The translations under genes were made by a program, and so were the position numbers. The notes beneath the pieces were generated by a model. It was not told the DNA's origin, made no database searches, and saw nothing but the letters and a program-made list of their open reading frames with translations. A stretch of DNA of 25,492 nucleotides from Candidatus Pacearchaeota archaeon (lineage in GTDB: Archaea > Nanobdellota > Nanobdellia > Pacearchaeales > GW2011-AR1), in contig JAGVXJ010000068.1 in NCBI GenBank assembly GCA_018303895.1, positions 1-25,492 on the forward strand, written 5' to 3'. Each line of letters starts with the position of its first letter. The first letter of the stretch is position 1. Shown piece after piece: positions 698 to 20,311 of the stretch.

Positions 698-773
698 TTC
701 ATTAATGCTCGTCCAGACTCTCACAAGCTCGGTCCCAACTTTGTAAGCAAAGATTGGCGCAGTGACTTCGCAT
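698..773 (+). repeat. Dispersed mini-element copy A (left arm 698-713, 44-nt hairpin insert 714-757, right arm 758-773)
   Basis: Arms ttcattaatgctcgtc and cgcagtgacttcgcat match 9279-9294 and 9297-9312 at 30 of 32 positions. The insert folds as ccaa-ctttg-taag-caaag-a-ttgg. Confidence 0.85.
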
Positions 774-775
774 GA

Positions 776-847
776 AGCGGGAGGCGAGAATCGAACTCGC
801 GTCTTGGGATCCACAATCCCACATTCTACCACTGAACTACAACCGCC
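776..847 (-). tRNA. tRNA-His (GTG) with encoded G-1; two acceptor-stem mismatches; no encoded CCA
   Basis: Minus strand reads G-GCGGTTG TA GTTC AGTGGTA GAAT G TGGGA TT GTG GA TCCCA AGAC GCGAG TTCGATT CTCGC CTCCCGC T. D, anticodon and T arms are canonical. Confidence 0.9.
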
Positions 848-1068
848 ATTATAGCCCTCAAATTCCAATTTATTCAATTGAGAAAAACTTGATATAAAAA
901 GATTCTTATTCAAAAACTTAGAATCAATAGAAAGATTTGCAGGCAAATCATTCAGTTGACTTTTTAACAAGTTAAAAAGATCAAAAGCACAGCTGTAGAA
1001 ATCCTTCTTTGGATCAATGAAAACATTCTCGCACTAAGGCGAGTTTGAGTTTAGCTGTCATAGAATTT

Positions 1069-1821
1069 TCAGTTATAACCAGTTTTTAAATTTTTACTTT
1101 CCAGAATTTTTATCGCTTCAAGGACGACTTTGATTGAGTTTTTCATTCCTTCATCAACCTTATTTTCATCGACGAGACGATAGATTACTTCCGGATTTTT
1201 TCTAACTTCTTCCGGTGGTTCAGGCGTGTTAACAGTTAATATCGCACCAGCCATCATTTTTCTTAATTGAGCAACTAAAAAAACTGCCGAACATTCCATC
1301 TCCGAACTGACTAAATTTTTTCCTTCCAATTTTGTAAAATTTTCCAAAGGTTCATAAAATGCGTCGTGAGTTCTGTTTGTTCCGACGAAATATCTCACTT
1401 TCAATTTTTTTGCTGCTTCAACTAACGCGTTAAAAACTTCTTTGTTCGCTTTAATTTTTTGATTTTCATAACCATATTCTTTTGTCGTTCCGTCGGCACA
1501 CCATGCTGAATCAGGAATTATCAAATCTCCAGGTTCCATTTCTTTTAACAATCCACCACAGGTTCCGATTCTTATCAAAACTTTTGCTTTAACATTAGCC
1601 AGCTCTTCAGTTACAATTGCTGCTGAAGGACATCCCATTCCCGTCGTGACTACTGAAATTTTTGTATCTTCATAATTCCCCTCGGCAATTCTAAGCCCGC
1701 GATTATTATTAATTTCTTTTTCATTAGTCAAAAATTTCAATATCTTTCCAACTCTGTCTGGATCTCCGGGAAGAAGAACATAATTTTGAATCTTGTCTAT
1801 TTTCAAATGTGGTTGAATCAT
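1069..1821 (-). CDS. udp: Uridine phosphorylase / NP-I family nucleoside phosphorylase
   Basis: Motifs LLPGDPDRV, TTGMGCPSAAIVTEEL, LIRIGTCGGL, THDAFY and EMECSAVF. Confidence 0.9.
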   Translation of the reverse strand: MIQPHLKIDKIQNYVLLPGDPDRVGKILKFLTNEKEINNNRGLRIAEGNYEDTKISVVTTGMGCPSAAIVTEELANVKAKVLIRIGTCGGLLKEMEPGDLIIPDSAWCADGTTKEYGYENQKIKANKEVFNALVEAAKKLKVRYFVGTNRTHDAFYEPLENFTKLEGKNLVSSEMECSAVFLVAQLRKMMAGAILTVNTPEPPEEVRKNPEVIYRLVDENKVDEGMKNSIKVVLEAIKILESKNLKTGYN

Positions 1822-1853
1822 TATTTAATTTGTCTCGCAGGTTTTAAATATTT

Positions 1854-2660
1854 TTAGATTATCTTCTGGATATAATTCACAAAATCTAAAACTCCTTCAG
1901 TGTAGGATTTTCTTGAAACTAGTCCGTTATTTTTTCTTACAAATCTTTTTACTTCTTCTCTCGCGTTTGCCGGACAACCAATCATTTTTGGTGAAGATTC
2001 TTGAAACATTAATATGTCTGGAATTTCATCTCCAAATGAAGCTATTCTATTTTCTCCCGCAATTTTTTTCATCGGATTACTCTTCAAAGCATTTTTTGGA
2101 GTGAGAATAATATTCCCATACTTTTTAGAAAAGAAAAGATTGTATTTTTCTCCGTAAACTTTTTTTAATCTTTCAAAAACATTTGAAGTAAATTCATCGT
2201 TCTCTGTTGGAATTCCTTGATTGATTACTCTTGGATAAACTGTCGCTGTAAAGATTCTGCTTTTTTCACAGTATGCTTCTTTAGAAAGCGAACTGAAAAA
2301 TTTTTCTGGACTTTTGACTAAGTCATCTGTAGATATAAAAGAAACTCTGTCACATAAATTTTTCAAACTTTTTTTCAGGTTCTCCCGCGAAAATTTAACA
2401 CCAAATGCATTTTCATCCAAATTTTTTGCCGGATTAAAAACTCCCTGCCCATTTTCGTAAACTATTAATCCATTAGTTTTTATCTGTGACCAAATATCAA
2501 TAATATTTTTCAATGATCGATTTGAATTCAAATGGAAATTTATTTCACCAAAATATTTTCTTAATTCCTTTTTTAATTCATCAACTGGGATATTAAATCG
2601 GTATTTTTCGTCAATAAAACACCCATCAATATCAAAAAAAACATCAGTCTTCTTCTTCAT
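1854..2660 (-). CDS. HAD-superfamily phosphatase, subclass IIB (Cof/SPP-like)
   Basis: Motif I FFDIDGC, motif II LNSNRS, motif III Lys (KSNP), motif IV FGDEIPD, then GCPANA. Confidence 0.85.
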   Translation of the reverse strand: MKKKTDVFFDIDGCFIDEKYRFNIPVDELKKELRKYFGEINFHLNSNRSLKNIIDIWSQIKTNGLIVYENGQGVFNPAKNLDENAFGVKFSRENLKKSLKNLCDRVSFISTDDLVKSPEKFFSSLSKEAYCEKSRIFTATVYPRVINQGIPTENDEFTSNVFERLKKVYGEKYNLFFSKKYGNIILTPKNALKSNPMKKIAGENRIASFGDEIPDILMFQESSPKMIGCPANAREEVKRFVRKNNGLVSRKSYTEGVLDFVNYIQKII

Positions 2661-3555
2661 TTTTCTTTCTCTTGATTATTAATTCGTAGACAATATTACT
2701 TCTTTTAGACGGTTTTAATGCTACACTTATTTCATCCATAGCCAAGATTGATTTAATCGTTTTAAAGAAAGATTTATATTTGATTTTATAATCTTCAACA
2801 AATTCTTTCGGGATACTTGCCCAATTTTCTGGGTTCTCTGAATATTTAATGAAAAGATTTGCAGAGTTATCTGTATTTCTCATCGGAACTTTCCGACCAT
2901 CAAAACCTAAACAATCTCTCATTTCAAGCCAATCAATCCAATCAAAACTTTGAACATATTTTGTATTCAATCCAATAGCATTAAGTTTTTCGATTCCTTT
3001 TTTCCCTGCGAAAGCCAAATAAATTTTTTCTACTTCAATTCCTTCTACTCTAAATCTATTTTCGATTTCATCTCCAAGTGTCCCACCTTCAAAAGTTCCG
3101 ACGTCCATCAAGTCAATTTTTTTCCCATACCGCTTTTTTATTTGTCTTACTTGCTCGTCCAATGAAACAGCTCTAAATCTTGGGCCAAGTTTGTGTGGTT
3201 CATTCAAATTGTGCGGATTCTGAATTCTTGTAACATGATAATTTCCGTCGGGTAAATCTTGGCAATAAACATCATCAAAACTTATAATCGGATTTGATCC
3301 ACCATTTTCCGAGATTACTTTTCTCAAGCCCGAATCGATTTCTCTATCTGAAATAAATTTCATTTCCCAAGAAAAATTTCCTTTTTCATCGCTATCTTCT
3401 CTCTTTCCAATCAAGTCCCGCATTTCAGTAAAGTAGTATTGCTCAAGGAGTCTCAATGATTGTTTAATCTCGTCACTTAAAGGAACATTATGTCTATTTT
3501 CCAATAAGGGAACCAATCCACCAGTTAAGAGATAAACTTTATTTCGAGAGGGCAT
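2644..3555 (-). CDS. Hypothetical protein with a divergent type I phosphoribosyltransferase-like motif
   Basis: KKIDLMDVGTFEGGTL resembles the PRPP loop hhhhDDhhxTGxT. The stop overlaps the HAD gene start by 17 nt, suggesting an operon. Confidence 0.55.
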   Translation of the reverse strand: MPSRNKVYLLTGGLVPLLENRHNVPLSDEIKQSLRLLEQYYFTEMRDLIGKREDSDEKGNFSWEMKFISDREIDSGLRKVISENGGSNPIISFDDVYCQDLPDGNYHVTRIQNPHNLNEPHKLGPRFRAVSLDEQVRQIKKRYGKKIDLMDVGTFEGGTLGDEIENRFRVEGIEVEKIYLAFAGKKGIEKLNAIGLNTKYVQSFDWIDWLEMRDCLGFDGRKVPMRNTDNSANLFIKYSENPENWASIPKEFVEDYKIKYKSFFKTIKSILAMDEISVALKPSKRSNIVYELIIKRKKNEEED

Positions 3556-3600
3556 GAAATTACCATGCCAACTTGTTTATATATTTTTCCAAAAATAGAA

Positions 3601-3636
3601 TTGTACTTTTCTTCTAATAATTTTCTGACCCTCTAT
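3601..3636 (-). repeat. Second copy of the last 12 codons of eIF5A (33 of 36 nt identical to 3678-3713)
   Basis: The copy reads ata gag ggt cag aaa att att aga aga aaa gta caa; the gene reads ata gag gga caa aaa att att aga aga aaa gta taa. Confidence 0.95.
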
Positions 3637-3669
3637 GCGAAGCGACTACGTTCGGCGAGCATTTCTGGA
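3635..3669 (-). repeat. Dispersed mini-element copy C
   Basis: Minus strand tccagaaatgctcgcc-gaa-cgtagtcgcttcgcat aligns with copies A and B. It contains GCGAAGC on the + strand at 3637-3643. Confidence 0.8.
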
Positions 3670-3677
3670 ACAAAAAA

Positions 3678-4070
3678 TTATACTTTTCTTCTAATAATTT
3701 TTTGTCCCTCTATATCCCAATATTCACAATTTTCGCCTTCAACTAATTGGGCGAACAATTCTTCATCAGGGCAAGGAATATCCATTGTTTCAAAATTTTC
3801 TAAATCCATAACACTCGCAACTTTATCTCCTTTTGAAAGAACTTGTGCTTTTCTTTTATCCACCATTGGAACTTCGAACTTATCATGTCCCGGGCTAACA
3901 AAAACTTTCTTGTTTCCTGCAATTAAAGGCATTGCTTCAATTCTACATTTTGCGTGTCCGTGCTTTCCTGTCTTTGAAACATCCATACTTCTTACAACGC
4001 AAGGAACTCCATCAACCATAATGTTGACGCCAGCTTTCGCCTCTGTTGCCTCTATAATTTTTAATACCAT
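3678..4070 (-). CDS. eif5a: Translation factor aIF5A/eIF5A (130 aa; start corrected to ATG 4070)
   Basis: Hypusine motif SKTGKHGHAK and C-terminal OB-fold text QVLS...VMDLENFET. The longer track ORF overlaps the promoter region and the divergent gene. Confidence 0.95.
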   Translation of the reverse strand: MVLKIIEATEAKAGVNIMVDGVPCVVRSMDVSKTGKHGHAKCRIEAMPLIAGNKKVFVSPGHDKFEVPMVDKRKAQVLSKGDKVASVMDLENFETMDIPCPDEELFAQLVEGENCEYWDIEGQKIIRRKV

Positions 4071-4189
4071 ACGGACAATAAAAAAAGTATGTTTATAAAG
4101 ATTTTTACTAAATTTTTCTATTTCTAAAAAATAAATATCCTTTAAATCAAAAGATTTAAAAGTCGTAATAACTGGAGAGTTAAAACAAA

Positions 4190-4954
4190 ATGGCTCAATC
4201 AACTCAATTCAGAAACGGGCAATTGCCAAGAACACCTTCAGAAAGTTTGGAATCTATCTCTTCCAATCAGATATCTCAACAAATTCCAGAAGCTGATTTG
4301 GAAATGATTTCAAAAAAAGATGCCGACACAATTCTTGCACTTGCCGGAAGTTTTTATGAAAGATTCATGACTCGTGAAGCGGAATTGAAAGAAAAAAATA
4401 GCCTGACTCAATCTCAAGATAAATTAGTTCAATTAATTTTAGGAGAGATGGTCCCAAAAACTTATCTTTATGATATTGCAGAGCAAAATGGTTTGCCAAG
4501 AGAATTAATAGACAACATGGCGAAGATTAGTCTTGACAGCGGAAGAAGAAATGAATTAATGCAAAAATACTCTATGGATTTTTCTAAATTAGCTCGTGCA
4601 AAATATCTATCTAAAATGTTTGAAACACTTCTTCCTAATGACCATTATAAGATTAGTGATATAGATCGCTACGAACATTTTGCTATTTCAATAGATGAAT
4701 CTAGCACAGTCAAAAAAGATTTATTCGAATTATTATATGATCGTTGGATTATGAAAGACAAAAATCTTAACAAATTAGTAAGAAAATCAAAAACAATAGC
4801 CCATTTTAATTTTTGTTATAATACTCTAAAAGGAGAGGTAAGTGATCCATTTATTCTAAATGTTTTTGACTTTATTTTGGAACATTCGGATTCTGGAATG
4901 AAACCTTATCTTGAACCTAAAAAAGGAGATCTTAAATTCTCTGGTGCAATCTAA
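4190..4954 (+). CDS. Hypothetical helical protein
   Basis: 254-aa ORF divergent from eIF5A; no family motif recognised. Confidence 0.7.
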   Translation: MAQSTQFRNGQLPRTPSESLESISSNQISQQIPEADLEMISKKDADTILALAGSFYERFMTREAELKEKNSLTQSQDKLVQLILGEMVPKTYLYDIAEQNGLPRELIDNMAKISLDSGRRNELMQKYSMDFSKLARAKYLSKMFETLLPNDHYKISDIDRYEHFAISIDESSTVKKDLFELLYDRWIMKDKNLNKLVRKSKTIAHFNFCYNTLKGEVSDPFILNVFDFILEHSDSGMKPYLEPKKGDLKFSGAI

Positions 4955-4995
4955 CCTTCGCAAACTTTTTTAAACACTCTTCTTATAATTTTTTC

Positions 4996-5718
4996 ATGGC
5001 TTTGCAAAAAAAAGATTTTGTTGAAATAGAATTCACTGGAAAATTGAAAGACGGCGAAGAAATTTTTGATTCAAACATTAAAGCAGACGTTGAAAAAATG
5101 CACGCTGGTCATAATCACAGCAAAGAAAAGCATGATATGAATGTCAAGCCATTTGTTTTTTGTTTGGGAGAAAAAATGTTTCTCGAGGGTGTTGAAGATT
5201 TTTTAATTGATAAACCAGAAAATTCTGCTTCGTATAATATCGAAATTTCTCCAGAAAAATCTTTTGGGGTTAGGAATCCAAAATTAGTTCAGGTTGTTCC
5301 GATAAAAGTTTTTCATGCTCAAAGAATAAATCCAACTCAGGGAGATGTTTTGAATTTCGACGGAAAATTGGGAAAAATTTTGTCAGTTTCTGGCGGAAGA
5401 GTAATTACTGATTTCAATCATCCTCTTGCTGGAAAAGAAGTTATTTACAAGGTTAATCTAAAAAGAAAAGTCACTGATATAAATGAAAAAGTAAAAGCTC
5501 TGTTTGATTTCTTTTTCAGACAAAATTTTGAGTTTTCAGTTTCAGCTAACAAATTAATTGTAGAAGTTCCGACTGGATATTCACAACTCTTGATTTTGTT
5601 CAAAGACAAATTCAAAGAAATTTTAGGTTTGGAACTTGAAGTAAAAGAACTTTCTCTTGAAAACAAAAAAGAAATTTCTCAAAAGATAAAAGATAAAGTT
5701 GAAGAGATGAAAAATTAA
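4996..5718 (+). CDS. slyD: FKBP-type peptidyl-prolyl isomerase, archaeal long type (SlyD-like)
   Basis: DFVEIEFTGK...FDSN, PEKSFGVRNP and DFNHPLAGKEV (FKBP/IF-domain signature), plus an archaeal C-terminal domain. Confidence 0.9.
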   Translation: MALQKKDFVEIEFTGKLKDGEEIFDSNIKADVEKMHAGHNHSKEKHDMNVKPFVFCLGEKMFLEGVEDFLIDKPENSASYNIEISPEKSFGVRNPKLVQVVPIKVFHAQRINPTQGDVLNFDGKLGKILSVSGGRVITDFNHPLAGKEVIYKVNLKRKVTDINEKVKALFDFFFRQNFEFSVSANKLIVEVPTGYSQLLILFKDKFKEILGLELEVKELSLENKKEISQKIKDKVEEMKN

Positions 5719-5761
5719 GTTTCAACAAAATCCTTATAACTTTTGTTTTATTCTTTTTCTT

Positions 5762-6289
5762 ATGTCTTTAGATAAAAAATTAGAATTAATGAATTTATTA
5801 CATCAGTTAAATGTTGTCCAAAAAGGAACTTTCTCTTTAACCAGCGGGAAAATTTCAAATTTTTATCTCGACATTAAATTAGCTTTGGGAAATCCCTTGG
5901 CATTAATTCTAATGAGAGACTTACTTGTAGAAAAATTTTCTGAAAAAACTAGTTGTGTTGTTGCTTGTGGTTATGGCGGAATCGCTCTTGCAAGTGCAAT
6001 CTCTACAAATTATAACCTTCCCTTGTCGATGGTTCGAGCAGAGGAACGAACTCACGGAATGAAAAAAGCAATTGAAGGTTACATTCCAAATCCAAGCGAT
6101 GTTTGTGCTTTTATCGACGATGTTTTTTCAACAGGGAAAAGCATTAATTTGTTAGCAGATAAAATCCAACTAACCAGCGCAAAAATTTCAGGAGCTTATG
6201 TTGTTGTCAATCGGACTGATTTAAACAATAGTGAAAAAAATATTCCCTTTTCTCTTTATTCTTTATTTTCCATAAAAGATTTAGTCTAA
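5762..6289 (+). CDS. pyrE: Orotate phosphoribosyltransferase-like
   Basis: GTFSLTSGKISNFYLDIK, RAEERTHG and the PRPP loop FIDDVFSTGKS. Confidence 0.85.
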   Translation: MSLDKKLELMNLLHQLNVVQKGTFSLTSGKISNFYLDIKLALGNPLALILMRDLLVEKFSEKTSCVVACGYGGIALASAISTNYNLPLSMVRAEERTHGMKKAIEGYIPNPSDVCAFIDDVFSTGKSINLLADKIQLTSAKISGAYVVVNRTDLNNSEKNIPFSLYSLFSIKDLV

Positions 6290-6360
6290 TCTTAATACTC
6301 TTGATTATTCCTCTACATTTACATAATAATACTTATAAACACAAATTGATTCTCCTTTTC

Positions 6361-7473
6361 ATGACTGATGATATGTTCAAAAGAAGTGAAACAAAAGAGA
6401 AAAACTCTTCGGACGAAGTTCGGGAAATTGATAAAGAACTTGAAGAGCTATTAAAGAAACAGGCTGCGAAGATAAAAGTAATAGGAATTGGTGGTGGCGG
6501 AAATAATTCTTTGAGTAGAATGAGAGAAATTGGAATCAAAGGTGGAGAACTTATTGCGATAAACACCGACGCACAGGATTTGCTTTATGCTAACGCAGAT
6601 CATAAAATTCTAATCGGAAAAGAATTGACCATGGGTCTTGGTGCTGGAAGCAATCCTAAAGTTGGTGCCGAGGCTGCGAAAGAATCAGAATCTGAAATTA
6701 AGAAAAAACTTTCTGGCGGAGATATGGTTTTCATAACTTGTGGTTTGGGTGGAGGAACTGGAACTGGTGCAGCACCAGTCGTTGCAGCATTATCTAAAAA
6801 GCAAGGTGCCTTGACTATCGGAGTTGTAACTTTGCCTTTCACTCTTGAGGGTGCAAAAAGAATTGAGAATGCTATGGAAGGCCTTGAAAAAATGCAAGCT
6901 TCCGTCGATACTTTGATTGTTATCCCAAATGATAAACTTCTTGAACTTGCCCCAGATTTACCTTTGCATACCGCATTTAAAATTGCCGACGAGATTTTAA
7001 CGAATGCTGTGAAAGGCACAACTGAATTAATTACTACTTCCGGACTTGTAAATTTAGACTTTGCAGATATTCGTGCAGTAATGACTAATGGTGGAGTTTC
7101 TTTAATTGGGATGGGTGAAAGCGATTCTCAAAATCGTGCTGCCGATGCTGTTGAGAAAGCAATAAATAATCCTTTACTTGATGTGGACATTGCAAATGCG
7201 CAAGGAGCTTTAGTAAATATCGTCGGTGGACCTGACATGACTTTGGATGAATGTAGAATTGTTATGGACTCCGTTGGTTCAAAATTAAGTCCAGATGCAA
7301 AAATAATTTGGGGTGCAAAAATTTCTCCAGACATGGAAAAATCAATAAGAGTTTTAATTATTGTGACTGGCGTAAGAAGTTCGCAAATTTTGGGAGATGT
7401 TGATACTCTCGACGAAACGAGAAGAAAAGAAATTGAAGAAGAATTGGGGATTGAATTTTTTGAAAGTCAATAA
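6361..7473 (+). CDS. ftsZ: Cell division protein FtsZ (start moved to ATG 6361)
   Basis: GIGGGGNN, NTDAQD, GLGGGTGTGAAP tubulin signature and NLDFAD. A TATA-like cttataaa lies about 25 nt upstream of 6361. Confidence 0.97.
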   Translation: MTDDMFKRSETKEKNSSDEVREIDKELEELLKKQAAKIKVIGIGGGGNNSLSRMREIGIKGGELIAINTDAQDLLYANADHKILIGKELTMGLGAGSNPKVGAEAAKESESEIKKKLSGGDMVFITCGLGGGTGTGAAPVVAALSKKQGALTIGVVTLPFTLEGAKRIENAMEGLEKMQASVDTLIVIPNDKLLELAPDLPLHTAFKIADEILTNAVKGTTELITTSGLVNLDFADIRAVMTNGGVSLIGMGESDSQNRAADAVEKAINNPLLDVDIANAQGALVNIVGGPDMTLDECRIVMDSVGSKLSPDAKIIWGAKISPDMEKSIRVLIIVTGVRSSQILGDVDTLDETRRKEIEEELGIEFFESQ

Positions 7474-7477
7474 TAAA

Positions 7478-7711
7478 ATGGGAATCGAAATAAACGAATA
7501 CAAAGTTAAAGTTTTAGAAAGATTATGTTCAGCTCTCCCATTTAATACAACTATTTTCGAGGAGAAAGGATATTGTACTCTTTGTTCTCGAGATTGTTTT
7601 TATGCAAAAATTCCTTCGGAAGAAGACAAAAAAATTTTGTGCACAAAAAAAAATTATACTTTCTTGGATGAAACTTCTCCAGTCAATTTCAAAATTCCTC
7701 ATTTAGCCTAA
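7478..7711 (+). CDS. Small Cys-rich hypothetical protein (possible Zn-binding), 77 aa
   Basis: ATG 4 nt after the ftsZ stop; sequence contains C...CTLCSRDC...C. Confidence 0.6.
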   Translation: MGIEINEYKVKVLERLCSALPFNTTIFEEKGYCTLCSRDCFYAKIPSEEDKKILCTKKNYTFLDETSPVNFKIPHLA

Positions 7712-7750
7712 TAAACGAAATTTTAAAAACTCTGAATATTTGATTTAATT

Positions 7751-7954
7751 ATGGAAGACAATAATTTGGGCGGTTCTGGTTTCTCAACGAACGCAAAATC
7801 TTTTTTAATAAAATGTAAACGAGTTTGGTCAACACTTAAAAAACCTTCAAGAAAAGAATTTGAGATGGTTGCTAAAATTTCGGCAATAGGTATTGTTATT
7901 CTAGGCCTGTTTGGTTTTTTAATTTCAATTGTCATTAAGATGATTGCCGGTTAA
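7751..7954 (+). CDS. secE: Protein translocase subunit SecE/Sec61-gamma
   Basis: KKPSRKEF followed by the TM segment IGIVILGLFGFLI; conserved position between ftsZ and spt5. Confidence 0.92.
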   Translation: MEDNNLGGSGFSTNAKSFLIKCKRVWSTLKKPSRKEFEMVAKISAIGIVILGLFGFLISIVIKMIAG

Positions 7955-8061
7955 TTTTTACCTAAACAGAAAATTTAAAAACCCTTTTCCTTACTTATTT
8001 CTAACTACTTCTAAAAATTTAGGAGTTAGTTGAAACTAAACAATTCAAAAAATAAAACAAA

Positions 8062-8532: not shown

Positions 8533-9285
8533 ATGATAATAAAATTACTTGTTGAGGGTGGAGAAATGAAACCAGGACCAACTCTTAGTCAGAAGCTTGG
8601 ACCAGCTGGAATAAATATGAATCAGGTTCTTCAAAAAATTAATGAATCGACTGCTGATTTCAAGGGACTTAAAGTTCCGGTAGAATTAGATGTTGACGTC
8701 GGAACAAAGATTTTTGAAGTTAAAGTTTTTTCACCACCAGTTTCAGAACTTTTGAAAAGAGAGCTTAAAATTGAAAAAGGATCCGGAACTCAAAAAAAAC
8801 AGTTTGCAGCAAATGCTTCAATTGAACAAATAATTTCTGTAGCTAAAACTAAATTTTCAAACATGCTTTGTAAGGATTTAAAATCTGCAGTTAAAACCGT
8901 CGTTGGAACTTGTGTTTCACTTGGAGTTTTAATTGAAAATAAATCACCTGTTGAAATAGAACATGAAATTGATGAAGGAAAATTTAACAAGGAAATCAAA
9001 GAAGAAAAAACAAAAACTTCTGAAGAAAAAAAGAAACAACTTGAAGAATATTTCTCTGATGTAAAGTCGCAACAAGATAAACTTCTCAAACAGATAAACT
9101 TCTCAAACAAGAACAAGCTGCTAAAGAAGCTGCTGCCGCTGCTGCACAAGCAACTGCCACGACTACGGCTGCTACTCCTGCTGCAACTTCTGCGACGGCA
9201 ACTACGCCAAATGCTCCTGCAAAAACAGCAGAAGCAAAAGCGCCCGCAAAAAAAGAAGCTAAGAAAAAGTAAAACTTTTTCATAA
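8533..9285 (+). CDS. rpl11: Ribosomal protein uL11 with a C-terminal extension; tail frameshifted by a 17-bp duplication (alternative-frame stop TAA 9270-9272)
   Basis: KLLVEGG...PGPTLSQKLGP, VPVELDVD, PPVSELLK and VVGTCVSLG. Confidence 0.93.
   Translation: MIIKLLVEGGEMKPGPTLSQKLGPAGINMNQVLQKINESTADFKGLKVPVELDVDVGTKIFEVKVFSPPVSELLKRELKIEKGSGTQKKQFAANASIEQIISVAKTKFSNMLCKDLKSAVKTVVGTCVSLGVLIENKSPVEIEHEIDEGKFNKEIKEEKTKTSEEKKKQLEEYFSDVKSQQDKLLKQINFSNKNKLLKKLLPLLHKQLPRLRLLLLLQLLRRQLRQMLLQKQQKQKRPQKKKLRKSKTFS
9075..9108 (+). repeat. Perfect 17-bp tandem duplication (agataaacttctcaaac x2) inside rpl11
   Basis: Seen directly at 9075-9091 and 9092-9108. Confidence 0.95.
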
Positions 9286-9312
9286 ATGCTCGTCGACGCA
9301 GTCACTTCGCAT
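9279..9312 (+). repeat. Dispersed mini-element copy B
   Basis: ttcataaatgctcgtc-ga-cgcagtcacttcgcat; 30 of 32 arm positions identical to copy A. Confidence 0.85.
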
Positions 9313-9370
9313 AAAGAAGAAATAAACTGCTTTTTGTGTTGTTTTTGAATGTTAATCAATCAGCAAATAA

Positions 9371-9378
9371 TTTATAAA
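9371..9378 (+). promoter_or_regulatory. Archaeal TATA box for tRNA-Pro
   Basis: tttataaa ends 25 nt before the tRNA 5' end. Confidence 0.6.
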
Positions 9379-9402
9379 CAAATTTTAGCTGAATTTCGTT
9401 AT

Positions 9403-9476
9403 GGGGATATGGGGTAGCCTGGTTAGCCTATGAGGTTTGGGACCTTATGACCCCGGTTCAAATCCGGGTATCCCCA
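9403..9476 (+). tRNA. tRNA-Pro (TGG), intron-less, no encoded CCA
   Basis: GGGGATA...TGAGG TT TGG GA CCTTA...CCCGG TTCAAAT CCGGG TATCCCC A; perfect 7-bp acceptor stem. Confidence 0.95.
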
Positions 9477-9592
9477 TTAGTAGTTGAATGAAATGAAACT
9501 ACTTCGGATTTGAAATTCAAATCCCGAGCGATTTCGCGAATAAGAAAAACGAATTGATTTAAACTGAGCGAGGTCGCGAGTTAGGTATCCCC
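9477..9592. mobile_element. Palindrome-rich ~110-bp element ending in a 9-bp copy of the tRNA-Pro 3' end (att-like)
   Basis: ggtatcccc occurs at 9467-9475 and 9584-9592. Stems at 9479-9503 and 9506-9524. Internal repeat gagcgaNNtcgcga at 9526-9539 and 9566-9579. Confidence 0.5.
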
Positions 9593-9673
9593 CAAATTTT
9601 ATCGCTCAATCAAAAATAGAATAATTTAAAAACCATTTTTGTAATCTATTATTATATTATCTAGAAACTAACC

Positions 9674-9892: not shown

Positions 9893-9893
9893 A

Positions 9894-10031: not shown

Positions 10032-10032
10032 A

Positions 10033-10427: not shown

Positions 10428-10448
10428 TAAACCATCTGTAAAAATGTT

Positions 10449-11709: not shown

Positions 11710-11814
11710 TTTATCCTATTATATTACTAACTTTAATTTAACAAACTGTAATTTCAAACATATCTTAGAATATAGAAATCTTTATAAACCGTGTAAACTG
11801 CAAAATGACACAAC

Positions 11815-13467: not shown

Positions 13468-13474
13468 TTTTAAA

Positions 13475-13762
13475 ATGAAAAAAATGAATTTGAAGAGGTT
13501 TGGACTTTTAGGTTTGCTGGCTGGAATGATTTCCTTAAATAGTTGTGCTGGTTCTTGCCAAAATGCTTGCAGTGATATTTCACGGGATGCAATTAGAAGA
13601 GATTATGTTCTAACTTTGTACGGGTGTGACGGCAAAGAAATTGAAAAAAGAGAGCTTAAACATACATTCATCGAAGTCTCTGAGAATGGTTCTGGTATTA
13701 GATATGTCCAAAATGATAAATTAATTATGATAAATGGGACTTATATTCTGGAAGAAAAATAA
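13475..13762 (+). CDS. Small lipoprotein-like hypothetical protein (95 aa; start corrected to ATG 13475)
   Basis: MKKMNLKR, a hydrophobic stretch, then an LNSC lipobox-like motif; beta-rich C-terminus ending NGTYILEEK. Confidence 0.65.
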   Translation: MKKMNLKRFGLLGLLAGMISLNSCAGSCQNACSDISRDAIRRDYVLTLYGCDGKEIEKRELKHTFIEVSENGSGIRYVQNDKLIMINGTYILEEK

Positions 13763-13765
13763 TTT

Positions 13766-13816
13766 TTATCTCTCCCCATAAAAAATTCTTTCGTAAATTC
13801 TCGTCCATAATTTTTT
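13766..13816 (-). repeat. Second copy of the last 17 codons of the PAP2 gene (47 of 51 nt identical to 14038-14088)
   Basis: The copy encodes KKLWTRIYERIFYGER*; the gene encodes KKLWTRIYERIFYGEK*. Confidence 0.95.
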
Positions 13817-13818
13817 GT

Positions 13819-14037
13819 TCTTCATGGAAAGTTAATCGTTAACTTTCTATAGCGTAGCGAGAAAAATTATTTAGATTTTTCTTCATGGAAAGTTAATCGT
13901 TAACTTTCTATAGCGTAGCGAGAAAAATTATTTAGATTTTTCTTCATGGAAAGTTACTTGTTAACTTTCTATATGTTTTGTTCACAAAATATTTCTGAAC
14001 GAATCTTATTCGTTCTATAGCGTAGCGAGAAAAAAAA
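13819..14037. repeat. 61-bp tandem repeat array (starts 13819, 13880, 13941) plus a variant fourth module; hairpin + TATAGCGTAGCGAG units
   Basis: Stem gaaagttaa-tcg-ttaactttc. Tail ttctatagcgtagcgagaaaaa at 13845, 13906 and 14013. Variant stem gaacgaat-ctt-attcgttc at 13997-14015. Confidence 0.95.
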
Positions 14038-14658
14038 TTATTTTTCTCCATAGAAAATTCTTTCGTAAATTCTCGTCCATAATTTTTTTTCTTTTTCCCC
14101 ATACATAACAAATTCTCCAATCAAGTATCCGATTATTGCGCCGAATATTACATCACTTAAGAAATGAACTCCAAAGTATACTCGTGAAAAAGCAATCAGA
14201 CATGCAAAAACAATCCAGACATATTTGAATCTTGGAAATTCTTTACTCAAAATTGGAATTGAACAAAATGCAAGCATTGCTTGAAATGAAGGGAAAGAAT
14301 AATTCCAAATAATAAAATTTTCTTTTATCAATAAAGGTAAAGTTTCAACTATTTCTTGTTGAAATGGCCTTAATCTTTGAACCCCAACCTTTAATAAAAA
14401 ACTTACCATCACTGCGAGCAGAGAAGATACCCACAACGGCAAAACCCATTTTCTTTTGTGTTCTCGCCACATAAACAAGCTCGTTAAAATTAATAAAATA
14501 ATTACTTCTGAACTTACAAAAGTAACTCCCAAAAAAACTTCATCCAGAATATCTCCCCTCAAAAAAGAAACTTTCTCGACGATTTGTGCATCAAAATACA
14601 AACTTATCAGCCCAACTATCACTGCAATTAAAAGAATAATTATTCCTTTTTTTTTCAT
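14038..14658 (-). CDS. PAP2-family membrane phosphatase with a degenerate C2 motif
   Basis: C1 KVGVQRLRP, C2 SFPSFQ (normally PSGH), C3 SRVYFGVHFLSD; several TM helices. Confidence 0.85.
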   Translation of the reverse strand: MKKKGIIILLIAVIVGLISLYFDAQIVEKVSFLRGDILDEVFLGVTFVSSEVIILLILTSLFMWREHKRKWVLPLWVSSLLAVMVSFLLKVGVQRLRPFQQEIVETLPLLIKENFIIWNYSFPSFQAMLAFCSIPILSKEFPRFKYVWIVFACLIAFSRVYFGVHFLSDVIFGAIIGYLIGEFVMYGEKEKKLWTRIYERIFYGEK

Positions 14659-14777
14659 CTCAATAGATTAAATCATAAACCCCTTTTCAAAAAATTAAAT
14701 ATTAAATTCTTTAAATAGGTTTCTCATTTACCCTTTTTAATAAAAAAGCTTTTAATGATGTTTTCCCTGAAGAATAA

Positions 14778-15407
14778 ATGTTCCAGAATATTTTATCTTT
14801 TATTTCTCATCTTGATTCAAATCTTGTTGCTTTAACCGTGAGTTACGGGATCCTGATATATCCATTAGTGTTTCTGATTATATTTGCTGAAACTGGGTTG
14901 GTTTTTGCGCCGTTTCTTCCTGGAGATTCTTTGCTTTTTGCGGCAGGAGCAATTTCAGCGTCGGGAATGTTAAATATTTTTGTGCTTTATTTTCTTCTTT
15001 TACTTGCCGCAATTTTAGGAGATAGTGTAAATTATTCCATAGGAAAATATTTCGGTCAAAAAATTATTTCTAATCAGTGGGTTAATTATAAGTATATTGA
15101 GAAAACAAAAAACTTTTATTCAAAGTATGGAAATAAAACAATTGTTATTTCAAGATTCATGCCTATTGTTAGAACTTTTGCTCCTTTCGTTGCTGGAATT
15201 GCGAAAATGGATTACAAAAAATTTCTATCATATAATATTCTTGGTTCTTTTCTTTGGGTTACTATTTTTCTTTCTCTTGGTTTTTTCTTCGGAAATATTC
15301 CTTTTGTAAAACAACATTTTAGTATAGTTGTCTTCGGAATAGTATTCATTTCAATAATCCCTGCGATAGTTGAATTCATAAGATACAAATTTTCAAACAA
15401 AAATTAA
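14778..15407 (+). CDS. dedA: DedA/VTT-domain membrane protein
   Basis: IFAETGL...PFLPGDSLLF, GDSVNYSIG and RFMPIVRTFAPFVAG. Confidence 0.93.
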   Translation: MFQNILSFISHLDSNLVALTVSYGILIYPLVFLIIFAETGLVFAPFLPGDSLLFAAGAISASGMLNIFVLYFLLLLAAILGDSVNYSIGKYFGQKIISNQWVNYKYIEKTKNFYSKYGNKTIVISRFMPIVRTFAPFVAGIAKMDYKKFLSYNILGSFLWVTIFLSLGFFFGNIPFVKQHFSIVVFGIVFISIIPAIVEFIRYKFSNKN

Positions 15408-15410
15408 ACT

Positions 15411-16028
15411 TTAATTTTGCTGTTTGATTAAATCATTAGTCTGTTTAACTTTTTGCAAAAGAAATCTTTCAGTTGCAATTAAAATTTCACAGTTGTTAAT
15501 TGTCATTGTATAACAAGTTTTTGAGTTCTGGACAATTTTTGTTTCATTTCCAACATCCATTTCTAAAAAGAGATATCTACCCTTTTCATCGCACGATGCA
15601 TTTTTATCTTGAATTGATTCAATTCCAAGATATCCAAAATTAATTACAATATTTCCAACACCAATACTCCCATCACCATTACATACAAAGTCATTTGTAG
15701 AGTTTATTACCATTACATCTCTCGTTGAAACATTTCCATCAAAGGGAATTTCATAAATATTCTTCGGATCATTTCTGAAATAAATGTTTAAATCCAATGA
15801 TTTTCCATTTTGTATCGTCGGTAAATTAGTTTGATAAAAATTTAATTCTCCAACTTTAACCTTTTCAAATTTCATTCCTTCATATTGAAACTTCCCAATA
15901 TTTTTCACAAACAAAAAAACTAAAAAAGAAACAGCCAAGATTAACAAAATTCCGGCAATTATTTTTACGAATTCTTTTTTATGATTTTTCTTTTCAGCAG
16001 TCTCTTTTTTTTCGTCAACTTTTTCCAT
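15411..16028 (-). CDS. Hypothetical single-pass membrane protein, paralogue of 16041..16625
   Basis: Charged N-terminus, one TM helix, YEGMKF, and C-terminal Cys pairs. Confidence 0.75.
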   Translation of the reverse strand: MEKVDEKKETAEKKNHKKEFVKIIAGILLILAVSFLVFLFVKNIGKFQYEGMKFEKVKVGELNFYQTNLPTIQNGKSLDLNIYFRNDPKNIYEIPFDGNVSTRDVMVINSTNDFVCNGDGSIGVGNIVINFGYLGIESIQDKNASCDEKGRYLFLEMDVGNETKIVQNSKTCYTMTINNCEILIATERFLLQKVKQTNDLIKQQN

Positions 16029-16040
16029 TTTATCCTAAAC

Positions 16041-16625
16041 TTATTGTTTTATTTTGAACAATTTAAACAAATATTCATCGGTAAGCTCAAGCATTTTTTC
16101 TGATTTTCCTCGGATATAAACACAATTTTGTTTTTGTTCCAAGCTTTCATTTTCAGAATATTCTATAATTATAAAATTATTGGTGCAATCTTTTTTTACA
16201 ATTGAAACGTCGCAAGTTTTATCTTCAGGACAAGCCGTTTGAACTCGTTCTACAATTGAATTTGCTCGAGGATCAAGGTTTCTATACAACTCACCTTCGG
16301 CATCCTGATTTTCTGAATAAATATACAATGGTAGAGAGTAATATTTCTCTATTGTGTCTACTTTTGAACTAACATTTTCAGTTTGCATCGGATTATAAAA
16401 AAAGATTAAATTATTTCCCTCTTTTTGTGTTATCCAAAAATTGTTTTCATCTTTAGTAAATGTTATCCCTTGATACTTAATTTTTCCTGACGAGGTATTT
16501 CCAAAAGAATCAATTATAACTCCAAAACTACTTCCTAAAAGAATAAGCCCCAAAACAATCGCCACAATAACCTGTGTTCTTTTTTTCTTTCTCTGAACAT
16601 CCTGTTGATTTTCAATTTTTTTCAT
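16041..16625 (-). CDS. Hypothetical single-pass membrane protein
   Basis: Basic N-terminus, TM IVAIVLGLILLGSSFGVII, YQGITF, and C-terminal Cys pairs. Confidence 0.75.
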   Translation of the reverse strand: MKKIENQQDVQRKKKRTQVIVAIVLGLILLGSSFGVIIDSFGNTSSGKIKYQGITFTKDENNFWITQKEGNNLIFFYNPMQTENVSSKVDTIEKYYSLPLYIYSENQDAEGELYRNLDPRANSIVERVQTACPEDKTCDVSIVKKDCTNNFIIIEYSENESLEQKQNCVYIRGKSEKMLELTDEYLFKLFKIKQ

Positions 16626-16830
16626 ATTAATCTTTATTCAAATTAGTATAAAAACCTTATGAAAACAACTAAATATTTTTTAAAGATTTTCAAATCTCTC
16701 GACGACAAATAAAAAATTTAACCCATTCTGCAACTATCGAGTTTACTCGACGTTTATAGTTTTTCTTTTACAATATATTTTCTTTCGTTTCATCAGAAAC
16801 GACGACAAGGATTTATTCTTGCCATTTTTC

Positions 16831-16896
16831 TAAAAAAAGAAACCCAGCTAACACCAGGTAGAATAAAAAAAAGAAAAAAATAAAAAAGAAAAATTA
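16831..16896 (-). terminator. S-layer terminator region: long T-tracts followed by a hairpin + T-run
   Basis: The minus strand after TAA is almost all T/C (16863-16896), followed by acctgg-tgttag-ctgggt-ttcttttttt (16859-16832). Confidence 0.6.
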
Positions 16897-16910
16897 AACT
16901 GAGTTTGTTC

Positions 16911-19325
16911 TTAAGCCGAAGCTACTTCAACACTTCCACCAGCCGAAACAGTACCTGTGTACTTCTTGCCAGCAGCAGTATCGTAGTTTGCAGGGTTAGC
17001 TAATAAATTAGCAGCAGCAGCTGAAGTGTCAGCAGCATCGTAACCAGCAACAACAATTGCAACATTTCCTGCTGAGAATTTGTCAGCATAGCTTGCAATC
17101 ATAAATTGTCCAGGTCCAACACTAGTACTATCTGCGAATTCTGTTTCACAGTAAGCACCGCCTAAAACTTTAGCAGTAGCAGCATTAATACAGCTTCCTC
17201 CAACTAAAACAACATTTCTTCCACTCCATGATGACTCTTCACTATCTTTGAAAAGCATATTACCTGTCTGACCTAAAGTTGTTTCAGGTGCGGTCAAGTA
17301 AGCAGTGAAATAAGATTCATCACCGTAGTATACAAATTCAGCTGATCTCTGTGAGCTTGATGTTCCCTTTCTCCAGAATTCGATTGGAACATTTCCTGAT
17401 GCAGTTGCAACAGCAACTCCTACCAAGTCATCATCGTTAGTTGGGTCAGAGAATATCTGACTTGCAGCTAATGAAGTAACACCCGATACTTCGATGTCGC
17501 TATCTGTTTGAACTGTTACATTCGCCTTAGCACTTGCACCTATACCAATGTTCCCATCCTTGTCTTCTCCCTTAACAACTAAAGAGAATCTACTTGCATT
17601 GTTTCCAACGACTCCCCCAGCACGATTTGTTGCAGTGAAGTTTATGGACCCATCAAGAGTTGAGTTTTCCGTACCTGTAAAAGGCATGGCAATCTCCAAT
17701 CCTTCTTTAGTGTAAAGTCTGTTGAAAGATGAACCTGCATTACCTGATAAGTTTACGTATTTAGTTGTACTTCCTTCAGTTCTTATTTGATTAAGAGTTA
17801 AAGTAAGACTTCCAATATCACAAGTAGCACTTCCAGAACTATCTGATCTATCCTTACATGCATCTTCAAAACCACTTTCAGTTAATTTCTGAACTGTAGT
17901 GTAGTTGATTCCATCAGTTTTTGAGAAACTGGTGAATCTTAATACATAAGACTCATGGTCTTTTGTACTATTCCAAGATGCAACCATCCAATCATGCAAT
18001 GAATCATTCCAAATCTGTCCCGCAGCTAATGTTTCATTTGTAGTGAAAACTAACTTTGTAGCAGATTCACCAATTCCAGCCAAGTCTTGTGAACTTGCGT
18101 ACAAAATTGGGATAGTGATTTCTCCATCTTTAAGGGTAGCAGTAAGTTCCATCTTAGTACTTCCCGAATTCTTTAATTTAACTACTTCCATAGTTGGTTT
18201 TTTGAATTCGTCCATAGTGAACTTAACAGCTTTAAATCCAGGCATTTCTAAATCAGAGTCGGCAGTTATAAAAGCTTCGTCATCAGTTTTCCATTCCAAG
18301 ATTATCTTTGTAATGGTTTCTTTTGAACCACTCATTGCTCCTCTTGTAACCCAACCAGTTAATTCTTCGACGCTATCGTCGTTCAATTTAACTTTTTGAG
18401 CGTTTTGTAATTCCAGTTTCCCAGAACCAACACTGAATTCGACTTTTCCAACTGTTCCAGCAACATCTCTTGCAAGGATATCCTTAATTCCGATGTATGT
18501 TCCATCATCTAATTTATAAGTTCCTCCTTCAGCAAGTGAATTTGTTATTTGCTCGTTAACCTTAAGTTTAACTTCTGTTGTACTAACATATTCTATTGAA
18601 ACGTCATAACTCTTCCCACCAACAGTCATAGTTTTTGTTTCACCTTCTGAAACAATAGCACTATCTGCTGAGTCTAAAAGAGTAAACTTAACGTTTGTTC
18701 CATTATCTGCATCGAGAACAAAATAGTTCTTTCCTAAAATGTTGAAGTTAGTTGTTTCAAAGTCAACTAAATCTCCCCCACTTACATCAGATTCTGGACT
18801 ATCAATAAAACTCAGAGTGTAGTTCAAAACTACATGATCTGAAGATAAATTAATACCATAAGTCAAAGCTTCATCCTTATAATCACTATCAGAGAAAAAC
18901 ATTGTTTCCAATGCACCTCCAAGAGTTAATTTTTGCTCGAAATCATATTCAGTGTTTTCATCATTTGAATACAATCCGTCAGCAAGAAGGACACCAAGGT
19001 CTTCGTCGTCAACCGTTGATCCGAATACAGTAGCAAAATCATCCAACAAGTTAATCTTGTCGCTTGCTTTTTCAAGCTTTACAAAATCTCCACCAGTTGG
19101 TGTTCCCCCTTCAGATTTAACTTGTTTCTTAAGGTACTCGTTTATATTTGATGCAGCAACTTGATCAGTTGAAGCAGCACTAGCACCATAAACAACAGCT
19201 GAAGCAGACGCACTTCCATCAGAGAACGGAGCCGGGAATGCAGCAGCAGCCGCAAAGCCAACACCTGAAGCCATCATCAACGCGCTCGTTAAAGCAGCTG
19301 ATATCTTCTTAAAATTGAATTTCAT
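16911..19325 (-). CDS. S-layer protein (Methanococcales/Thermococcales-type N- and C-terminal S-layer domains)
   Basis: MKFNFKKISA...GFAAAAAFPAPF N-terminus, VVYGASAASTD, C-terminal NVVLVGGSCINAATAK and VVAGYDAADT, and many sequons. Confidence 0.9.
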   Translation of the reverse strand: MKFNFKKISAALTSALMMASGVGFAAAAAFPAPFSDGSASASAVVYGASAASTDQVAASNINEYLKKQVKSEGGTPTGGDFVKLEKASDKINLLDDFATVFGSTVDDEDLGVLLADGLYSNDENTEYDFEQKLTLGGALETMFFSDSDYKDEALTYGINLSSDHVVLNYTLSFIDSPESDVSGGDLVDFETTNFNILGKNYFVLDADNGTNVKFTLLDSADSAIVSEGETKTMTVGGKSYDVSIEYVSTTEVKLKVNEQITNSLAEGGTYKLDDGTYIGIKDILARDVAGTVGKVEFSVGSGKLELQNAQKVKLNDDSVEELTGWVTRGAMSGSKETITKIILEWKTDDEAFITADSDLEMPGFKAVKFTMDEFKKPTMEVVKLKNSGSTKMELTATLKDGEITIPILYASSQDLAGIGESATKLVFTTNETLAAGQIWNDSLHDWMVASWNSTKDHESYVLRFTSFSKTDGINYTTVQKLTESGFEDACKDRSDSSGSATCDIGSLTLTLNQIRTEGSTTKYVNLSGNAGSSFNRLYTKEGLEIAMPFTGTENSTLDGSINFTATNRAGGVVGNNASRFSLVVKGEDKDGNIGIGASAKANVTVQTDSDIEVSGVTSLAASQIFSDPTNDDDLVGVAVATASGNVPIEFWRKGTSSSQRSAEFVYYGDESYFTAYLTAPETTLGQTGNMLFKDSEESSWSGRNVVLVGGSCINAATAKVLGGAYCETEFADSTSVGPGQFMIASYADKFSAGNVAIVVAGYDAADTSAAAANLLANPANYDTAAGKKYTGTVSAGGSVEVASA

Positions 19326-19561
19326 TATTTTTTATTTTCCCTCCTTTTTACCTCTATGGAGTATGTTGCCTATGGCAACCTATCTCATTCAAAAGCCATA
19401 GGGAAAACTTTCTTATCTGAGATGAGCATAACTTACACACGGACAATCAATCTGTGTGACCTGAATCCCCTAAATCTCACTTCCGGAAATCCAGGATTTA
19501 ACCCCATGTAAGTCCTTTCGAACTTATTATGGAAAACCTATCTTTCTTTAAAAAGTTTCGC
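19326..19561 (-). promoter_or_regulatory. S-layer promoter (BRE cgaaac + TATA tttttaaa 19555-19548), ~200-nt structured 5' leader and Shine-Dalgarno aaggaggg (19346-19339)
   Basis: Motifs seen directly; several perfect stems lie in the interval. The transcription start is inferred. Confidence 0.6.
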
Positions 19562-19705
19562 CCTAATTTTTTGTCATTGCAACCCAAACACGCCTTTTTT
19601 CAAGGTTTTATTTATAAGCTTTGCTTTGTCACTTACTTACACAACAGATTTTTGGGTCTTGAAAGTAGAAAAAAATAAGTCCAAATAATTTACAAATAAA
19701 TAAAA

Positions 19706-20311
19706 TTAATAATAATTCTTAAGATAAATTTGGTAGTTTTTTCCTTTTATGAATTCACTCCAACCAACTCTGGATGTCTTGGTTTGGCTTCCTTCCGAAA
19801 TACTCGTCACTGTTTCTTTTTGTTCACCATCAATCTTATAAATATTAAGTGAGAAACTTTTAACATAGCTTTCTTTTCCAGGATTAAAACTTTGATTTAT
19901 TGCGCCACGAAATATAGTCTCCATTCTTTTACATATGTCTTCATTTGTATTTTCACACTTTTGTTTAGTCACACATTGCGGAACCATGTCTTTCAAAGTT
20001 AAAATTTTTCCATTCATGCTACAGTTTGTGGTAATTTGTAAAGCAGATTCTAAAAAACTATCAAGTTGATAATCTTTTTCTTCAATTCCTTTTTTTCCAG
20101 TCAAAACAAAACCCAAAACAATCAAAAGTATAACCATAACTAAAATCATGATTAATACAAATCCCACCATTTCCTCCTGTCCAGATTTTCTGGATAGGCT
20201 TGAAAGATTTCTTTTAGAAATCTTTTCCTCTTGAGCTTTTTTCTTTTGAAAAAAGTCAACGTGATGATTTGTCCACAAATCTTTCTCCTGTCCAGATTTT
20301 TTTATTTTCAT
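19706..20311 (-). CDS. Pilin-like protein (class III signal-like KSG/QEEMVGF + hydrophobic helix) with an expanded leader
   Basis: Basic leader, G|Q junction, then 20+ hydrophobic residues and a Cys-containing globular domain. Confidence 0.65.
   Translation of the reverse strand: MKIKKSGQEKDLWTNHHVDFFQKKKAQEEKISKRNLSSLSRKSGQEEMVGFVLIMILVMVILLIVLGFVLTGKKGIEEKDYQLDSFLESALQITTNCSMNGKILTLKDMVPQCVTKQKCENTNEDICKRMETIFRGAINQSFNPGKESYVKSFSLNIYKIDGEQKETVTSISEGSQTKTSRVGWSEFIKGKNYQIYLKNYY

Follow-up and report, generated by a model that had tools for sequence, protein, structure and literature searches.

Displaced second gene ends around short inserts in a Pacearchaeota genome: candidate protein-less mobile cassettes

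Gene ends in the genome of a Candidatus Pacearchaeota archaeon (assembly GCA_018303895.1) repeatedly occur twice: the intact end of a gene is followed by a short insert and then by a second copy of the same end, and the two copies differ from each other as orthologues do. We describe this layout from one contig, JAGVXJ010000068.1 (25,492 nucleotides, nt; hereafter the window, meaning the whole stretch analysed), in which it is found at the gene for translation factor eIF5A and at a gene for a PAP2-family phosphatase. Because an identical core sequence is present in different genera, the copies show coding-type divergence and the sites are empty in relatives, we lean towards the reading that these are small protein-less mobile cassettes, made of a gene end, an antisense segment and a core, which recombine with the homologous gene end.

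The 82 contigs of the metagenome-assembled genome (MAG), which comes from groundwater, total 792 kb with 33% G+C; the window is contig C11. By the labels of the genomes that share its repeat, the source is a DPANN archaeon. The MAG is 71% complete and fragmented, with scaffold gaps. C-numbers denote contigs of this MAG, L-numbers loci and G-numbers genomes; G001 is a 594-kb genome of the same genus. Archaeal eIF5A, FtsZ, Spt5 and uL11 are encoded in the window.

Gene ends in duplicate in the window and across the genome

At eIF5A, the initial annotation had described a 36-nt copy of the gene end beyond a 41-nt insert, and both lengths were borne out by the sequence. The functional end (copy 1) and the untranslated one (copy 2) differ at three sites, two of them silent (GGA/GGT and CAA/CAG) and the third at the stop codon (TAA/CAA). 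The insert contains a T-run and a core sequence, M1. The bases directly after the stop of copy 1, which we call segment U, are the reverse complement of the first bases of copy 1, and RNA folding predicts a stem of 15 base pairs (bp) in which 3694-3708 pairs with 3667-3681 and the stop codon lies at the stem foot. This stem is among the strongest stop-spanning stems of the genome. Four runs belonging to at least three studies yielded Logan contigs that cross copy 2, insert and copy 1 with 0 or 1 difference, MEGAHIT contigs from ENA have identical spacing, and no junction skipping the insert occurs in the Logan contigs of the four runs. These independent assemblies confirm the junction and exclude an assembly artefact at eIF5A.

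At PAP2, the 51-nt copy and the 221-nt insert described in the same annotation are likewise present. The copies are identical at 47 of 51 nt and differ by three synonymous changes and one K/R replacement; together with eIF5A this gives five silent differences, one K/R and one stop/Gln, and our codon comparison matches that earlier count. The insert comprises a T-run with complementarity to the gene end, a motif, M2, present three times (14013-14033, 13906-13926 and 13845-13865), about 2.5 tandem units of 61 nt (13818-13973) and stems of 6 to 8 bp with 3-nt loops. A motif said to be common to the eIF5A and PAP2 inserts on the antisense strand, tatGCGAAGCGA / tataGCGTAGCGA, was located in both. 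Short-read contigs break at the PAP2 repeat array, and the number of units given here is that assembled in the MAG.

The layout is not confined to the window. We compared the last ten codons and stop of every open reading frame (ORF) of at least 100 codons with the next 450 nt in all frames, with a threshold of at least 7 matching positions of 11. Second copies followed 20 ORF ends, vs 3 in a three-fold shuffled control (about 1 expected), an enrichment of about 20-fold. A blind nucleotide scan for local direct repeats recovered the loci found by the ORF-end scan. Repeats range from 12 to more than 60 nt and inserts from 26 to 271 nt. Gene 5' ends showed no clear excess in the MAG (10 vs 3, the matches resembling internal repeats).

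The differences between copies follow the reading frame. The 22 pairs contain 93 synonymous codon differences and 22 others; restricted to the eight pairs that nucleotide identity by itself had picked out, the counts are 23 and 8 (P = 2.7e-5, under a null in which copy 2 decays freely and copy 1 accepts only silent changes, giving 37% synonymous). The end of the gene for ribosomal protein S7 (C62) has 9 of 14 codons changed, all silently, and that of aRF1 (C81) has 10 of 21 changed, nine silently. Serine codons switch between the TCN and AGY families at C62, C82, C43, C19 and L154, and in-frame 3-nt indels separate the copies at C1 and C19. Such a pattern indicates that both copies were under coding constraint for most of their separation time. 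A decaying target duplication therefore cannot account for the copies, and duplication followed by free decay is ruled out by the codon statistics, the serine switches and the in-frame indels. The initial annotation had made its proposal depend on genome-wide enrichment and a synonymous bias, and both are pronounced.

Duplicated ends belong to the genes for S7, S9, S11, uL11, eIF5A, aRF1, aIF5B, SMC, a RadA-like ATPase, FEN1, a DHH phosphoesterase, TrmB, LemA, PAP2, a methyltransferase and tRNA-Pro. Most of these genes are universal, with ends sufficiently alike between lineages for an imported sequence to recognize them. Copy 1 encodes the same residues as the orthologues, or nearly the same, and the gene is intact and in frame; copy 2 has lost its stop at eIF5A and S9.

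Orthologous sites, core families and segment U

Empty orthologous sites exist in relatives, a comparison that the initial annotation had proposed. Scanned whole by the identical gene-end method, G001 contains no such duplication apart from two lysine-rich chance matches; it has single gene ends at all orthologues, and its site downstream of tRNA-Pro is empty. Empty sites were also found at L052, L083 and L062. The first of these is the closest eIF5A locus with the gene order of the window, and it has a single gene end. Its sequence after this end aligns with the window sequence after copy 2, and the window therefore holds 77 extra bases relative to L052. In both, eIF5A is followed by an operon for phosphoribosyltransferase-like, HAD and nucleoside phosphorylase proteins. 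Comparison of window positions 3556-3600 with L002-L011 showed that most relatives have the L40e gene directly after eIF5A.

Second eIF5A ends occur beyond the window in G003 (locus L012) and at 8 of 80 metagenome loci. All these duplications start at the same codon, and their insert sequences are unrelated. Locus L076 has four copies. At L100, a 271-nt insert with a small open frame follows the eIF5A stop and lies between identical eIF5A ends; it may be a larger relative of the cassettes. At L076 and L075, 45 bases at the gene end are identical and the gene bodies are 15% different, which we read as direct evidence that gene ends are exchanged between lineages.

The core M1 has short inverted termini (ATGC....CGAC / GTCG....GCAT) and measures 27 nt, extended to 69 nt where a middle piece is present. 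There are 16 copies in the MAG. The exact pattern was found in 21 stretches from about 8 other DPANN MAGs, and M1 was absent from the viral contig collection searched. Relatives carrying it are labelled Woesearchaeota, Pacearchaeota or Nanoarchaeota, and its distribution is patchy (4 of 41 relative genomes, in four genera). A direct repeat of at least 14 nt brackets 14 of the 25 distinct M1 copies, vs 3.4% of shuffled pairings, and several copies form arrays. Some M1 copies lie at tRNA ends or at an RNA-like gene end. Beside tRNAs, M1 is oriented opposite to the gene and the working copy stands on its other side. Two loci, L147 (6150-6330) and L149 (4780-4990), have M1 arrays at the 3' end of an apparent structured RNA gene, with the repeat ...GGTGGCCTACCC.GACTTA. 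Further copies of M2, the motif in the PAP2 insert, occur at C28, C82, C62 and C81. A third family, M3, consists of two GAGCGA..TCGCGA mini-palindromes 40 nt apart and has further copies at C12 (13057-13112), C9 (2621-2672) and C42 (10375-10401). No known RNA families were found in the window except two tRNAs.

Segment U is firm at the clearest loci and short elsewhere. Of the genome's seven strongest stop-spanning stems, six lie at duplication sites, and inspection of the S7 array showed a better fit of each antisense segment to its own copy than to the adjacent one. Gene ends in general show no enrichment of stop-spanning stems over shuffled pairs in G000 or G001, which excludes a general terminator habit of this genome. 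The inserts may plausibly act as terminators. The elements had initially been called palindromic; this is accurate for the strong hairpins formed by gene ends with the bases after the stop and for the stems of the PAP2 insert, and it fails for the M1 core, which by nearest-neighbour energies folds no better than shuffled sequence.

Three further sites in the window had been assigned to the same layout, and the features are listed in Table 1. At uL11, removal of one unit of a 17-nt tandem duplication gives an ORF that ends AKKEAKKK-stop at 9272; the extra unit is missing from the contig of another run. An 8-bp stem spans the stop upstream of M1 (9263-9270 with 9274-9281). The KKK-stop copy of the initial annotation was located beyond M1, and its 12 nt are a weak case of duplication taken alone. 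Perfect tandem duplications of 37-79 nt are also found on C3 (3854-3927), C6 (3723-3864), C39 (8576-8687), C55 (250-368) and C9 (3523-3748), and may be strain variants or assembly errors; that on C39 breaks a gene whose product ends ...DVWEHAYYL.

At tRNA-Pro, the 9-nt repeat noted earlier (9467-9475 and 9584-9592) exists and is a portion of a copy of about 22 nt that is split by M3. The end of the preceding insert, 9506-9514, is the reverse complement of the start of this copy and forms a 19-nt palindrome with 9516-9524. The long form of M1 beside tRNA-His was seen with no second copy of the tRNA-His end next to it. The acceptor stem of this tRNA has two mismatches, U5.C68 and U6.U67, the latter also present in the G001 gene; the idea of a chimeric acceptor stem was set aside as weak, the window's gene having only one mismatch more than that of G001.

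The third site, the leader of a pilin-like gene (20174-20300), no longer belongs here. Its 16-nt repeat is present (20174-20189 and 20285-20300), within an N-terminal extension that also has an 11-bp stem. The first 71 nt are 90% identical to a paralogue on C41, and by this comparison the extension is a family trait with a local addition of 57 nt. We do not count it as a gene-end duplication because most of what had been taken for an insert between the repeats is coding sequence conserved in the paralogue.

Table 1. Positions of genes, gene-end copies and insert features in the window
Feature	Position	Strand	Remarks
M1 core, long form, 69 nt	705..773	+	adjoins 3' end of tRNA-His (774-847, -); orientation opposite to gene
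eIF5A gene-end copy 2	3601..3636	-	untranslated; stop replaced by CAA; position is that of the single gene end of L052
M1 core, 28 nt	3635..3662	-	GCAT end adjoins copy 2
Segment U of eIF5A	3663..3677	-	T-rich, after stop; reverse complement of copy 1 start; RNA fold
eIF5A gene-end copy 1	3678..3713	-	functional; last 11 codons and stop
eIF5A gene, 130 amino acids	3678..4070, stop 3678-3680	-	ORF list; Pfam IF5A-like_N; orthologues in 92 loci
uL11 gene	8533..9272, real stop 9270-9272	+	frame broken by 17-nt tandem duplication 9075-9108
M1 core after uL11	9286..9312	+	
Possible short second uL11 end	9314..9325	+	AAG AAG AAA TAA (KKK-stop), two synonymous changes
tRNA-Pro (TGG)	9402..9477	+	95% identical to G001 gene
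Insert after tRNA-Pro	9478..9515	+	hairpin, then 9506-9514
Second copy of tRNA-Pro 3' end	9516..9593	+	halves 9516-9525 and 9582-9593, split by M3
M3 element, 56 nt	9526..9581	+	inside orphan tRNA-Pro copy
PAP2 gene-end copy 2	13766..13816	-	stop kept
PAP2 insert, 221 nt	13817..14037	-	
PAP2 gene-end copy 1	14038..14088	-	16 codons and stop
PAP2-family phosphatase gene	14038..14658, stop 14038-14040	-	

Cassette model and alternative origins

In the cassette model that we favour, a cassette would have three parts. X would be the last 6-21 codons of a conserved gene with its stop, or the 3' part of a tRNA. U, of 6-15 bases, would be the reverse complement of the first bases of X, and the two could pair into a stem-loop whose loop contains the stop or lies close to it. 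The core would be M1 (27 or 69 nt), the M2 motif or, in other lineages, other cores. A cassette made in one lineage would reach another and recombine with the resident homologous gene end, giving the order X - U - core - X. The gene would retain a complete in-frame end, and the other copy would be left untranslated. Since the copies would have worked as gene ends in different lineages until the event, they would differ as orthologues do, by silent and conservative changes and in-frame indels. Arrays would come from repeated events or from unequal crossing-over. The order X - U - core - X keeps the gene whole in either gene orientation, which fits the mirrored arrangement beside tRNAs.

Several steps of this model are conditional. 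The cassette would travel as a unit, with recombination within X, either of the kind seen at attachment (att) sites or by a single crossover; U may let a folded single strand mimic the duplex target, or may guide the event in another way; and an enzyme acting in trans would perform the exchange. Some comparisons point to the distal copy as the resident one: it is nearer to the gene end of the closest relative in L082/L083 (4 vs 9 differences of 33) and L078/L062 (5 vs 8 of 33), and the last codons of PAP2 copy 2 are closer to the G001 orthologue than are those of copy 1. More tentatively, these could be self-addressed DPANN cassettes, in which the folded single strand images the chromosomal target and a host or trans-acting enzyme exchanges strands there. 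If that possibility, which we consider less likely than not, is correct, any conserved gene or tRNA end would be a landing site, and the cassettes could spread between genera without harm to genes.

Several observations weigh against movement of cassettes between lineages. Of the sites that are informative against G001, 42 match copy 1 and 26 match copy 2, and this comparison favours neither copy consistently as the incoming one. Identical tandem units exist at C34, C47, L149, L151 and L154, and some copies therefore arise in place. Identical blocks between copies are 13-35 nt long in PAP2, C43, C81, C30 and L077, and at most 5-6 nt long in the C62 pair, short whether the exchange used a crossover core or homologous recombination. 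Over all M1 copies, complementarity of the flanks is barely above control (7.0 vs 6.0). The Logan contigs of the four runs showed neither a free or circular cassette nor a single population with both filled and empty sites. Finally, no recombinase is linked to the elements in the 71%-complete genome searched.

A first alternative is that the core transposes alone and duplicates its target in place, one copy being later overwritten by alleles of other lineages, so that the pair would resemble two working alleles. We consider this unlikely. Duplication in place could occur, for example, by cuts at the feet of the stop-spanning hairpin or by template switching. It would be in line with the identical or near-identical tandem units (C34, C47, C1, L149, L151, L154 and L156) and with the exchange of gene ends between lineages at L075/L076. 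The duplicated segment moreover has the extent of a stem-loop, and variation in the length of this stem-loop would account for repeats of 18 to more than 60 nt. Yet at C62 and C20 the copies diverge at 24-36% of bases while the amino acids change little or not at all, so that overwriting would need recombination of very diverged DNA over tracts of some tens of bases. Such variability in repeat length is outside the behaviour of known transposases, and we know of no transposase that yields duplications so variable in length. The constant start codon of the eIF5A duplication over ten lineages with unrelated inserts is a further difficulty.

Alternatively, the inserts could be deletion remnants of integrated viruses or plasmids whose attachment sites carried replacement ends at gene 3' ends, an origin that the initial annotation had also offered and that we regard as improbable. 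Integration of archaeal elements into 3'-distal regions of genes for tRNAs and proteins, accompanied by direct repeats and by repeated use of a site in tandem, is documented (PMC6563490). The 271-nt insert of L100, with its small open frame between identical eIF5A copies, would suit such an origin. Against it, more than 10 different genes of a single genome have the 27-nt core, and about 8 further genomes carry it, which makes remnants less likely than small cassettes, and the core was not found in the viral contig collection. Inserts go down to 26-41 nt, and a search of this genome for full-length elements between distant gene-end repeats gave no long-range repeat enclosing an element, save one weak match at 835 nt.

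It is highly unlikely that copy 2 is kept by selection and used through removal of the insert from RNA, DNA excision in part of the population, or a mini-ORF. An in-frame ATG or GTG does stand directly before copy 2 in C62, C81, PAP2, C47 and L077, and the most distal of the four copies at L076 is the best preserved. Most other cases have no start codon before copy 2, which at eIF5A and S9 also lacks a stop; insert-skipping joints are absent from the four runs, there is no match to a known RNA family, and use of copy 2 would leave the simultaneous coding state of both copies unexplained. An archaeal bulge-helix-bulge intron and translational bypass find no support in the sequence, the eIF5A copy 2 being without a stop. 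That an assembler joined the gene ends of two strains in tandem has a negligible probability despite the fragmented MAG, its scaffold gaps and its perfect tandem duplications, one of which (the 17 nt of uL11) is absent from the contig of another run, since the eIF5A structure is identical in Logan and MEGAHIT contigs, the layout occurs in MAGs from other projects and assemblers, and the inserts form conserved families.

Taken together, the enrichment, the synonymous bias, the empty sites and the independent assemblies support the earlier proposal of a non-autonomous family associated with gene ends from related lineages.

Known elements and biological meaning

As the initial annotation had stated, the mobilising enzyme is outside the window. 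A general family search found one tyrosine recombinase in the genome, on another contig, and it is probably the chromosome-resolution enzyme. A gene for a Y1 transposase of the IS200/IS605 type lies on C15 (4740-5052) and is cut by the contig end. It is preceded by a CCCCACAGC..GCTGTGGGG hairpin that is unrelated to M1, and no M1-like sequence was found beside six Y1 genes of relatives. Y1 is present in 3 of the 4 genomes holding M1 and also in 9 of the 37 without it, an association too slight to serve as evidence, in relatives that are not independent of one another. The suggested link to HUH nucleases was accordingly abandoned, as was an origin from IS200/IS605 elements or from repetitive extragenic palindromic (REP) sequences and their RAYT transposases: the end hairpin at the C15 gene is different, and 14 of the 25 M1 copies are bracketed by direct repeats.

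Three reverse-transcriptase loci were found (C20 3513-5023, C34 3767-4971 and C29 9483-10133). Two such loci have nearby imperfect repeat pairs of 66-80 nt, resembling diversity-generating retroelements and unrelated to the gene-end copies. A diversity-generating retroelement was rejected as the source of the copies. The differences are not specific to adenine: by inspection, about 5 of the 12 differing positions at C81 are A in copy 2, and the changes are silent; the genes concerned are housekeeping ones, for ribosomal proteins and translation factors, and the reverse transcriptases are on C20, C29 and C34. Terminal inverted repeats and many copies would fit a DNA transposon or a miniature inverted-repeat transposable element (MITE), but the variable repeat length and the synonymous excess do not. 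Like MITEs and REP sequences, the present elements are short, multi-copy and non-coding, with short inverted termini and a position mostly just after genes. MITEs, though, make short identical target duplications of fixed length and REP sequences make none, and neither brings a diverged end of the neighbouring gene.

Larger integrative elements offer closer parallels. Phage 21 and element e14 insert at E. coli icd through an attachment site that carries a replacement 3' end of the gene, and P4-like elements insert at tRNA genes. Shared with these are the gene end as a direct repeat around the insert, the intact gene, copies that differ like diverged alleles, a preference for conserved genes and tRNAs, re-use of sites in tandem and empty sites in relatives. 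In contrast, the present inserts are 26-221 nt long and non-coding, with no linked integrase found; one core family here serves many genes, each with its own gene-end copy; some pairs have no identical core; and an antisense copy of the target start is built in. Cis-mobilisable elements (CIMEs), integrase-less derivatives of integrative and conjugative elements, are flanked by att sites, for example at the fda 3' end in Streptococcus thermophilus. They too are non-autonomous, with flanking gene-end repeats and an enzyme presumably supplied in trans, but they are kilobases long, with one target site and a known parent, none of which was seen here.

Integron attC sites and the attP site of CTX phage, a substrate of XerCD, are folded single strands that make their own recombination site. 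The imperfect hairpin over the ORF end, the arrays with a hairpin 3' of each cassette and a folded single strand as duplex image of the target would all fit such a scheme. A single fixed chromosomal site and a tyrosine recombinase, either dedicated or supplied by the host, serve those systems, whereas here each target has its own sequence and no integron integrase or attI-like site is known, the search having covered the tyrosine-recombinase family in general. The resemblance thus concerns a possible way of working, by analogy, and not membership.

We did not find the layout described in the literature searched, the coverage of which was incomplete, and this is no proof of novelty; our results suggest small mobile cassettes that bring spare gene ends from one lineage to another, a kind of which we found no description there. 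If true, they would be a route for DNA movement between the very small genomes of episymbiotic archaea, by elements that are far below the size of known integrative elements, contain no genes and carry the address of their target themselves. This would imply a recombination activity on short, freely chosen sequences. It would also account for orphan gene-end fragments and odd stem-loops after housekeeping genes that annotation ignores or miscalls, and would supply markers of recent exchange between lineages that cannot be cultured. Even with an ordinary mechanism, the displaced copies would be a fossil record of gene-end replacement at essential genes.

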